Assembly: GCF_030222135.1 (NCBI RefSeq)
Contig: NW_026988420.1
Span: 6,451,875-6,515,874, forward strand
Reading direction: 5' to 3'
Length of the DNA: 64,000 nucleotides
Source of the DNA: Aotus nancymaae
Lineage: Eukaryota
Part shown: in pieces, positions 51,495-53,310 of the stretch
Position numbering within the stretch: position 1 is the first letter of the stretch
Layout: each line of letters begins with the position of its first letter
Notes under the pieces: model-generated
Told to the model about the DNA's origin: nothing
Seen by the model: only the letters and a program-made list of their open reading frames with translations
The model's database searches: none
Translations under genes and position numbers: made by a program

Positions 51495-52829
51495 GTACCT
51501 GTACCTGGGTCCTTCGGGCCCCACGCGCGGCCGCCCCACGGGGCTGCGGGTGGCTGGGGAAGCCGAGGAGACCGACTCGGACCCGGAGCCGGAGCCGACG
51601 GCCGCGCCCAGGGACTTGCCTCCGCTCGTGGTGCAGCGGGAATGGACGGAGGAGGCCTGGGGCGCGGAGGAGGCCCCGGCGCCCGCCCCCGCGCGCTCGC
51701 TCCTGCAACTTCGGCTGGCGGAGAGCCAGGCTCGGCTGGACCACGACGTGGCGGCCGCCGTGAGCGGCCCAAAATGACGGCCCCTCCTAACCCAAGGCAG
51801 GGGATCTTCCTCCCGACTCTGGACCAACGTAGCATTTCCTGCAGGCCTCTCCAGGCCAACGTGATGCTTGCTCTCAACTCTCTAGGCCAAGGTGGTGGCC
51901 TCTCCTGACGCTCCAGACCTAAAGTGAAACCCTTCAGGCACTTCAGGCCAGATTCATTCCTGCCCTGGTGCTTTGGGCGCCAGCCGACAGTGCTTTACAG
52001 ATAAGAACGACATGACGCGTGTGGATTTCACTACGTTGGCTCCTGGATGCTGTAAGAGGCCTCGGATTTCTGACTTGGCTCAGGACCTGGGGTTAGCAGC
52101 CGCTTTCTGCTCCTTCGCACTTGCCGATCTTCCAGCCCCAGCTCTGGTCCTTCAGCTCCATTCATACTGACTCACCTCTCCCAGCCTATTACCCTCTCCC
52201 TTGTCCCAATCCAAAGCCAAGTTCTGAGGCCCCAGGATGAAAAATGGGCAGGAGCTTTTCATGGCAGACTGATTAAAACTCTAAGCCTTTACCCTTAAAA
52301 AAAAAAAAAAAATTTAGGACTATAAGGGCAAGAATTATGCTGTCAGTCTATACCAAATGTTAACACTTTGTCAAATGCTGTGTTTTTTAAGCTTTTTGTT
52401 TTTTTAATATTGGGAATATCCCTTGGTGCTGTGAGTGGTGCTGAGACACCTGAACCTTTGTGCTTAGTGGTACTGAATTCCTGTACATAGGACCTCGTTG
52501 GTCTGTGCTCTGGTAGCAATTGCACTGTGTGCACACTGCCCTTCACGGGGGCATTTCTACCTGCTGCTGCCACGATGTATTCATGCTGCTTGTTAAGTCC
52601 AGGAAGTTATTCTGACGTTGGCCTCATTGTAATATACAAACTGTTGTTAAATGGATGTATATGTAACAGAATTTTGTATTTTATATGCGACTTTCACAGA
52701 ATCCTCTGCGATATGTCCCAGCTAGCTAAGTGTGTGATATAGTCTTTTTTGAAAGGAAAATCCCATCTGTGCCCAAGAAGATATTAAATGACAAATAAAA
52801 GCTGCATGATCTCTTAAAAAAAAAAAAAA
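51495..52829 (+). pseudogene. Retroposed transcript (processed-pseudogene-like) of unidentified origin: a CpG-rich ~0.4-kb 5' block, then ~0.9 kb of UTR-like sequence with an internal A15 tract (52291-52305) and a terminal AATAAA plus poly(A)
   Basis: The L1 ORF2 homology is interrupted at exactly this point. The block ends ...gacaaataaaagctgcatgatctctt(a)14 at 52816-52829. An ATTAAA lies ~20 nt before the internal A15, so this may instead be two stacked retrocopies. No intron-like structure and no convincing ATG-initiated ORF. Confidence 0.45.
51509..51900. promoter_or_regulatory. CpG-island-like block (very high CpG density, >70% GC) at the 5' end of the retroposed segment
   Basis: For example ccacgcgcggccgccccacggggctgcgg...gaccgactcggacccggagccggagccgacggccgcgcccagg...gcgcggaggaggccccggcgcccgcccccgcgcgctcgc...gacgtggcggccgccgtgagcggcc. 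About 45 CpG fall in roughly 300 bp, whereas the surrounding repeats are CpG-depleted. Confidence 0.55.
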
Positions 52830-53147
52830 TTTTTTTTTTTTTTTTTTTGGTTGTTGTTGTTGTTTTTTGAAATGGAGTTTCACTCTTGTTCCCCAGGTTG
52901 GAGTGCAATGGGGTATTCTTGGCTCACCGCAACCTCTGCCTCCCAGGTTCAAGCGATTCTCCTGCCTCAACCTCCTGAGTAGTTGAGATTACAGGTGCCT
53001 GCCACATGCCCAGCTACTTTTGTATTTTTAGTAGAAACAGTTTCTCCGTGTTGGTCAGGTTGGTCTCAAACTCCTGACGTCAGGTGATCCGCCCACCTCG
53101 GCCTACCAAAGTGCTGGGATTACAGGAGTGAGCCACTGCGCCCAGCC
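52830..53147 (-). mobile_element. Alu (minus orientation) whose T-run directly abuts the poly(A) of the + strand retrocopy
   Basis: ...ctctt(a)14(t)19ggttgttgttgttgttttttgaaatggagtttcactcttgttccccaggttggagtgcaatgg ... gggattacaggagtgagccactgcgcccagcc. Confidence 0.9.
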
Positions 53148-53310
53148 AGAGATGGAAGGTTTTATTAGACTAGGAGATTTGTGGGAGGTGTGAGCGCTGG
53201 GCCAAGGTGGCACTGGCCATGCTCAAGGCACCCTCTCGGGTGCAGTGACCACCAATGAAGCTGCTGGCATGGACGAAGATGCAGCCAGGAATCCCACTGA
53301 CCTGGTCCAG
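53148..53310 (-). other. 165-bp GC-rich non-L1 segment between the Alu 5' end and the resumption of L1. Read on the minus strand it ends ...CTAGTCTAATAAAACCTTCCATCTC directly at the Alu 5' end. It may be the 3' terminus of an mRNA co-retroposed with the Alu as a chimera.
   Basis: The segment is not part of L1: the L1 ORF2 is contiguous across 51494|53311. The AATAAA-like signal lies ~15 nt before the junction. No homology was recognised. Confidence 0.3.

Follow-up and report, generated by a model that had tools for sequence, protein, structure and literature searches.

Processed pseudogenes are a recognized source of new CpG islands, and a strong CpG island that has been retrotransposed shows hypomethylation in the cells of the male germ line wherever it is located, and the CpGs beside it are affected in a graded way (Grandi et al. 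2015, PMC4509998). The retrocopy PPP1R26P1 in intron 2 of RB1 is a second example of a retrocopy-derived island (PMC3839921). L1 reverse transcription can also join RNAs by template switching, giving bipartite and tripartite chimeric retrogenes (Buzdin/Gogvadze, PMC2104539) and Alu/L1 chimeras (Law & Burns 2026, PMC13174262). We analyzed an insert at positions 51499-53313 of a 64-kb stretch of primate-type DNA (the window), where the second open reading frame (ORF2) of an old L1 is interrupted by four retro-copied units: a BLOC1S3 retrocopy, a fragment resembling a 3′ untranslated region (UTR) that we call Z, an AluS element and the 3′ end of MYG1. The region as a whole is very probably an inert pile-up of RNA copies placed by the L1 reverse-transcription machinery into an A-rich part of ORF2. 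Within it, a CpG-island-grade piece of BLOC1S3 coding sequence, carried along by its retrocopy, seems to have held its CpGs while neighboring units decayed. As in the described retrocopy islands, a 5′-truncated retrocopy brings a CpG-dense segment of its parent into CpG-poor repeat DNA, the locus still qualifies as an island, and the substitution pattern fits germline hypomethylation. Unlike those cases, the island here is internal coding sequence, and it is not known to yield a transcript or to carry an imprint.

The best 300 bp of this block contain 39 CpGs, with a GC content of 0.76 and an observed/expected CpG ratio of 0.91 compared to a window background of 0.23; no other part of the 64 kb is as dense. 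The segment 51499-51767 (269 bp, GC 0.78, 38 CpGs, observed/expected 0.94) is a CpG island by the definition of Gardiner-Garden & Frommer (at least 200 bp, GC of at least 50% and CpG observed/expected of at least 0.6). A first-pass annotation of the region had singled out the extreme CpG density of this block, while slightly overcounting it (about 45 CpGs in 300 bp) and assigning about 0.4 kb to a block whose dense part is only about 0.27 kb.

Three of the four units could be identified directly. The reading frame through the CpG-rich block (...LYLGPSGPTRGRPTGLRVAGEA...SLLQLRLAESQARLDHDVAAAVSG) is that of BLOC1S3: it matched Pfam family PF15753 (E = 8e-20), which the database relatives of its peptide also carry, while a comparison of the peptide with PDB returned no solved relative. 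Over 51499-51767 the block is 93.5% identical in nucleotides to Logan contig SRR5429399_718082 (L001). This contig contains a genuine BLOC1S3 exon, including the intron boundary upstream of it and the entire coding sequence. (At positions 496-510 of this contig, a C-run is 1 nt shorter than the retrocopy and the reading frame require, splitting the gene call into two ORFs; this is probably an assembly error.) The coding part of the copy (51499-51766, plus strand) runs from about codon 38 to about codon 129 of the parent and is therefore 5′-truncated. Its 90 codons are free of stops and frameshifts, and the block contains no ATG-initiated ORF.

The copy derives from a spliced mRNA. At 51766/51767 coding sequence gives way to 3′UTR (51767-52296, plus strand), with the junction GTGAGCG/GCCCAAAATG. 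At this point the parent has the donor ...GTGAGCG/GTGTCT..., and the colugo genomic BLOC1S3 locus (L002), our comparison for the 3′UTR and the splice acceptor, has ...TTTCCTTCCTCAG/GCCCAAAATG... (given also as ...TTCCTTCCTCAG/GCCCAAAATG). A segment of roughly 1 kb that begins with GT and ends in polypyrimidine-AG is thus present in genomic BLOC1S3 and absent from the copy. As this is the signature of splicing, the parent molecule was an alternatively spliced mRNA that joined the coding exon to the 3′UTR. Homology to colugo extends to 52296, 19 nt past a conserved ATTAAA (52272-52277), and ends exactly at the start of a pure A16 (52297-52312), where colugo genomic DNA continues differently and has no A-run. 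Therefore, the A16 is the poly(A) tail of the BLOC1S3 copy: it is not encoded by the parent and it begins at an mRNA cleavage site, 10-30 nt after AAUAAA/AUUAAA. The first-pass annotation had suggested that a spliced mRNA was copied, tail included, into the plus-strand insert. This holds for BLOC1S3, which has one GT-AG intron removed and its own A16. A scan of metagenome DNA for a primate BLOC1S3 3′UTR, made with two blocks common to the copy and colugo, gave no matches, and exact look-up of two long window ORFs in public assemblies found no record of the same locus in other samples or species.

The opposite strand carries the Alu and the MYG1 fragment. A T19 on the plus strand (52830-52848) is the A19 tail of a minus-strand Alu (52849-53147) that is full-length from consensus position 1 and has an A-rich tail with (AAC)n. 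Two Rfam matches to Metazoa_SRP (7SL/signal recognition particle), one per monomer and sub-threshold as expected for Alu, together with the length of about 280 bp and the A-rich tail, identify a 7SL-derived dimer. Over positions 1-277 it is 85% identical to AluSx, better than to AluY or AluJo, and its non-CpG divergence from AluSx is 7.4%, all measured against working consensus sequences. Beyond the 5′ end of the Alu, the minus strand of 53149-53313 encodes ...ALDQVSGIPGCIFVHASSFIGGHCTREGALSMASATLAQRSHLPQIS and a stop codon, which is the C terminus of the MYG1 exonuclease (PDB, E = 5e-18; Pfam PF03690, E = 6e-12); a protein search with the peptide returned two distant fragments only. The 165 nt match the last MYG1 exon on a host-derived metagenome contig (L003), located by a related-locus search, at 158 positions (96%). 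They are the final 165 nt of the mRNA (45 codons, stop, 3′UTR, AATAAA and 12 nt more), 5′-truncated and without poly(A). Since the piece lies entirely inside the last exon, it is uninformative on intron removal. Both the minus-strand Alu and the adjoining 165-bp segment ending AATAAAACCTTCCATCTC had been recognized in the first-pass annotation.

The junction between these two units is precise. MYG1 homology ends exactly at ...AATAAAACCTTCCATCTC (...CCATCTC), 12 nt past AATAAA and with no A's; a single extra base follows (T on the minus strand, 53148), and then Alu position 1 (GGCTGGGCGC; GGCTGGGCGCAG...). In the parent genome, the sequence beyond the cleavage site reads ATACTGACCC and the next 2.7 kb contain no Alu, which rules out a read-through transcript of the MYG1 locus. 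Because there are no A's and only one extra base at the junction, because the Alu begins at position 1 and because the parent has no downstream Alu, we modestly favor, at somewhat better than even chances, a jump in which the reverse transcriptase left Alu RNA at its 5′ end and continued at the tail-less 3′ end of a MYG1 mRNA, with one untemplated base added. A less favored alternative is that the Alu inserted at the TC/AAAA base of a pre-existing MYG1 poly(A) tail. Upstream of the Alu one would then expect an A-rich duplication, which is absent. Of the earlier idea of an mRNA-Alu chimera formed by template switching, the fusion of a MYG1 3′ end to an Alu 5′ end is thus observed, and template switching is a reasonable, though not proven, explanation.

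The CpGs of the units have had very different fates. In the BLOC1S3 coding block, 35 of 41 parental CpGs were kept and none was lost as TG/CA: one lies in an indel and five were changed by transversion only (to CC, AG, CC, GG and CT), while three extra CpGs are present. The MYG1 fragment kept three of its seven parental CpGs and lost two or three as TG/CA. The Alu kept 4 of the 24 CpGs of the working consensus, with TG/CA losses not scored separately. Retention in BLOC1S3 differed from that in the Alu (Fisher test, 2e-8) and in MYG1 (0.018), and if CpGs decayed as fast as in MYG1, the probability that all of 40 escaped TG/CA loss would be at most 1e-6. Non-CpG divergence from the parents was similar (2.7% for the BLOC1S3 copy and 2.0% for the MYG1 piece), and nothing clearly marks the BLOC1S3 copy as the younger of the two. 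Since none of about 40 CpGs was lost as TG/CA while the neighboring units decayed, the evidence favors germline hypomethylation; most simply, the block would have acted as an unmethylated germline CpG island from the time of its insertion. The CpGs were most likely kept because DNA this CpG-dense remains unmethylated in germ cells at any insertion site and would thereby escape methyl-CpG deamination.

Several points weigh against this reading. Neither the BLOC1S3 contig nor the MYG1 contig is known to be conspecific with the window, such that some differences may belong to the parent lineages and the dating is weakened. About half of the differences between the BLOC1S3 copy and its contig are synonymous. 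If the copy were much younger than its neighbors, its CpG retention would need no protection.

The first-pass annotation had left a choice between a young insertion and an unmethylated island. The CpG spectrum supports the second; the first, in which the BLOC1S3 copy arrived long after the Alu and MYG1 and its CpGs are intact for want of time to decay, is the weaker of the two and rather unlikely. The pure A16 and A14 tails and the 90 codons without stop or frameshift would fit a recent arrival, and the synonymous half of the differences looks as if it arose in functional parents of different species, which would be in keeping with a contig not known to be conspecific. Yet the copy carries seven substitutions found in neither the contig nor colugo, including radical ones such as Ser to Trp, and it retains ancestral states (GAC, no 6-nt insertion) where the contig is derived. 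Its non-CpG divergence is not below that of the MYG1 piece, although MYG1 lost CpGs by TG/CA. In addition, all five of the five CpG losses by substitution are transversions, the spectrum of unmethylated CpGs, and most geometric reconstructions make the minus-strand units no older than the plus-strand ones. We therefore return to an unmethylated germline state as the more probable cause of retention.

CpGs are also unevenly spread in the 3′UTR part of the copy. All 15 fall within 360 nt of the block (51778-52125), leaving the last 170 nt without any. Only 6 are present in the orthologous UTR of colugo, the comparison being with that species and not with the primate parent; the distribution is compatible with a "shore" effect of a hypomethylated island.

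The A16 tail of BLOC1S3 is followed directly by Z (52313-52815, plus strand), 503 nt without an ORF. Z has its own AATAAA (52794-52799), 16 further nt and then an A14 tail (52816-52829). As an internal A16 after ATTAAA is followed by a second unit with its own AATAAA and A14, these are two retrocopies in tandem. The first-pass annotation had described about 0.9 kb of UTR-like sequence ending in AATAAA and A14; the ending is as described, and the sequence is not one unit, since the internal A16 divides it and the plus-strand part contains two units (BLOC1S3-A16 and Z-A14) rather than a single copy. That Z is a longer BLOC1S3 3′UTR isoform was ruled out, as colugo genomic DNA parts from the copy exactly where the A16 begins and has nothing similar to Z. 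Z matched none of the fetched loci or proteins. A scan of genome contigs with its 3′ end gave no matches, nor did a protein search with concatenated stop-to-stop translations of the BLOC1S3 3′UTR part and Z, which would find spurious ORFs on host-contaminant contigs. Z has the appearance of a 5′-truncated 3′UTR-like mRNA fragment, and short 3′UTR-only pseudogenes are common (PMC4509998). It may have inserted in the BLOC1S3 tail, or a template jump onto the poly(A) end of BLOC1S3 may have joined the two. Poly(A) tails are favored insertion targets.

Both flanks of the insert belong to the same L1. The left flank (51250-51491, plus strand) ends in ...EWIKDLNI, and the right flank (53319-53650, plus strand) resumes with LEENLG... 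seven codons downstream. In the PDB alignment, the two flanks match residues 955-1065 of human ORF2p (E = 1e-11), exactly seven residues (KPKTIKT) being missing where they meet, and three other L1 copies in the window align across the site. The earlier statement that ORF2 is cleanly interrupted is thus right as to the flanks and not as to the break: seven codons (21 nt) are gone, and there is no target-site duplication. The outer limits of the insert had also been placed slightly off, and are 51499 and 53313. When the site was compared with the TT/AAAA-like sequences cut by the L1 endonuclease, the ancestral target reconstructed with the three other L1 copies was GACTTAAACATAAGACCTAAAACCATAAAAACCCTAGAAGAAAACC, an A-rich sequence that can be written CT/AAAACCAT/AAAAACC (consensus stretch, AGACCTAAAACCATAAAAACC). 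On the left, L1 continues to ...AAACATA and is followed by seven ambiguous bases, CCTGTAC (51492-51498), which either are L1 that has diverged (CCTAAAAC) or arose when the first bases of the BLOC1S3 copy (CTGTAC) were duplicated from a template. On the right, the MYG1 end, ...GGGC, is followed by AGTTA (53314-53318) and then CTAGAAG; AGTTA may be filler or a diverged piece of L1, or may reflect a 4-nt duplication (AGTT). The L1 lacks about 15-21 nt of A-rich sequence here, the upper figure being the seven codons of the protein alignment. (A pure A14 run is also present farther downstream, at 53651-53664, within L1 ORF2 sequence.)

Direct repeats of at least 7 nt, sought across all pairs of unit boundaries, were absent except for A/T runs. 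Thus, the flanking target-site duplications that the first-pass annotation had proposed to look for in the L1 sequence, which measure 7-20 bp in L1-mediated processed pseudogenes, were not found. An ACCTGG(G)TCC repeat at the two outer ends was considered as a target-site duplication and rejected as coincidental because each copy belongs to its own parent mRNA, one to BLOC1S3 and the other to MYG1.

The geometry of the insert is unusual. Both 5′ ends adjoin L1, and the two tails meet at 52829/52830, where the A14 runs straight into the T19, a junction already visible to the first-pass annotation. Target-primed reverse transcription (TPRT) leaves an insert with its tail joined to the target DNA from which synthesis was primed. 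The tails lie beside the flanks and the heads in the middle after twin priming, as they do after dual priming at a single staggered break; since the geometry here is the reverse, both were rejected. Twin priming, 5′-inverted L1 insertions and antisense Alu/L1 chimeras resemble this locus in that two retro-copied segments lie in opposite orientation at one site. They differ in that twin-primed tails adjoin the flanks, with central heads, inside duplications, and in that the antisense Alu/L1 chimeras also have their tails beside the flanks and their heads in the middle (PMC13174262).

The chimeric retrogenes are closer in some respects. They consist of a full-length cellular RNA at the 5′ end and a 5′-truncated 3′ part, mostly LINE (long interspersed element), joined directly in the same orientation and bounded by short flanking direct repeats (PMC2104539). 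As in these and in the Alu/L1 chimeras (PMC13174262), the units described here are copies of unrelated RNAs in the same orientation with poly(A) at the 3′ end, and direct joining is seen in both MYG1-T-Alu on the minus strand and BLOC1S3-A16-Z on the plus strand. The 3′ part of BLOC1S3-Z does look like a truncated 3′UTR. Unlike the catalogued cases, the two pairs here face each other tail to tail. L1-mediated insertions can also be accompanied by target deletions (Gilbert 2002, Symer 2002 and Han 2005, as cited in PMC4509998). L1 and Alu insertions with target deletion or without duplication, including endonuclease-independent ones, share with this locus the lack of a duplication, the loss of about 21 nt and ambiguous filler; they usually involve a single element with one tail-to-target junction, whereas here neither tail adjoins recognizable target DNA.

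Several features count against the explanation favored here, some of them as departures from the published chimeric retrogenes. The 5′ parts of both pairs are truncated, as only the last 165 nt of MYG1 and BLOC1S3 from about codon 38 are present. The 3′ part of MYG1-Alu is a full-length Alu and not a truncated LINE, and the locus has no flanking direct repeats. As canonical TPRT ties each tail to its target, the direct A14/T19 is unexplained unless an extra assumption is made; this could be a lost target core of a few nucleotides, priming without complementarity, or end joining. Finally, the Alu looks older than the MYG1 piece (7.4% versus 2.0% non-CpG divergence, p = 0.02), so that co-insertion fits badly unless divergence had already accrued in the Alu template or mutation is faster in Alu DNA. 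For the same reason that canonical TPRT cannot directly make an A(n)/T(n) junction, the proposal of the first-pass annotation that the second retroposition struck the poly(A) tract of the first copy does not follow from it. In a second tail-to-tail Alu pair in the window, plus then minus (10063-10674), an 8-nt spacer (CTATTCCA) separates a degenerate A-rich tail from a short T tail. Such pairs ordinarily look like this, in contrast to the direct A14/T19 at 52829/52830.

The missing target, the absent duplication and the filler bases together indicate that at least one integration step was non-canonical. The number and order of the insertion events, template jumps included, can only be sketched from the junctions. 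The plus strand would have received a 5′-truncated copy of an alternatively spliced BLOC1S3 mRNA with its A16 and then the 5′-truncated Z with its A14, and the minus strand the product of the jump from Alu RNA to MYG1 mRNA. Two accounts could accommodate this. In the first, serial events on opposite strands would have occurred around a short A-run/T-run core of the target. The plus-strand insert, primed on the minus strand at ...TTTT/AT, would land left of AAAA, and the minus-strand insert, primed on the plus strand at ...TT/A, would land right of TT. The tails would then merge with the core, whose A-run would come from the L1 consensus, and so face each other. A 4-nt duplication of this AAAAGTT core could account for the AGTTA on the right side of MYG1, which would need the loss of one G between A14 and T19 and unusually diverged L1 at that point. 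In the second account, the non-canonical step would be priming without complementarity, joining of a cDNA end at a break, or end-to-end template jumping.

We also considered that all four pieces came from a single L1-mediated reaction. First-strand cDNA on Z would have jumped to the BLOC1S3 poly(A) end, and the second strand would have run to the A14, then end-to-end onto the poly(A) of Alu RNA (T19), and from the Alu 5′ end to the tail-less MYG1 mRNA, after which the outer ends would have been end-joined to the broken L1; as a variant, a free double-stranded cDNA concatemer could have been captured at a double-strand break. The three internal junctions are direct, with no target DNA between units, both outer junctions are of the 5′-end type with short ambiguous filler (CCTGTAC and AGTTA), 21 nt of target were lost without a target-site duplication, and the BLOC1S3 and MYG1 pieces are similar in divergence. 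Double template jumps in LINE reverse transcription are also documented (PMC2104539). However, the catalogued chimeras join their parts in the same orientation or with tails out and are bounded by duplications (PMC13174262, PMC2104539), and we found no precedent in the catalogues of chimeric retrocopies consulted for a tails-in, two-orientation, four-part chimera. Moreover, a covalent bond normally ties the first cDNA to the target, the MYG1 piece looks younger than the Alu, and serial insertions into A-rich DNA and tails are common and offer a simpler account. We consider a single reaction improbable. Its jump version, in which the L1 enzyme moved after second-strand synthesis of the BLOC1S3-Z cDNA to the Alu RNA poly(A) and on to the tail-less MYG1 mRNA, seems a shade less probable again. 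If the four units did arrive together, the locus would document an unusual template-jumping product.

It is similarly improbable, judging from the sequence, that the island is an active orphan promoter or a differentially methylated region whose CpGs are held by selection beyond their intrinsic protection: the block is an island with an unmethylated-type substitution spectrum, CpGs are relatively enriched for 360 nt downstream of it, and the truncated-retrocopy island of PPP1R26P1 is a promoter and imprint of an alternative RB1 transcript (PMC3839921), but the block is an internal coding fragment and not the promoter of its parent, has no ATG-initiated ORF, and intrinsic germline hypomethylation of CpG-dense inserts, a model in which the somatic state is methylated, suffices. 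Were the island transcriptionally active, it could be an orphan promoter, as PPP1R26P1 is in RB1.

Every component of the locus belongs to a known kind, as retrocopy-born islands, chimeric retrocopies and duplication-free insertions are all documented. Two curiosities, the duplication-free meeting of the tails and the fusion of a tail-less MYG1 end to an Alu, point to template jumping or end joining and are no evidence of a new mechanism. The locus is a worked example of a small, promoter-less fragment of a CpG-island gene that seems to hold island-grade CpG density in methylated repeat DNA. Retro-copies 0.5-1.5 kb from the block decayed and the block seems not to have done so, which fits the idea that CpG density alone can dictate germline hypomethylation, as well as the view that retrocopies seed new CpG islands.

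Two further features of the window were recorded. Its 38 Alus (e.g., 6151-6430, 14249-14825 and 31381-32082) are all AluS- or AluJ-like, at 72-91% identity to the working consensus sequences, and none is AluY-like or young; a complete lack of AluY among 38 Alus would be unusual for a catarrhine. At 55593-55758, nested inverted repeats with 59-nt arms (83% complementary) and 36-nt arms (89%) contain a unit of about 25 nt, TGTCTGTATCCATTTACAAAAGTA, that alternates in orientation. This segment gave sub-threshold Rfam matches on both strands to mir-4536, mir-3910 and mir-3688, and is probably a repeat-derived hairpin.

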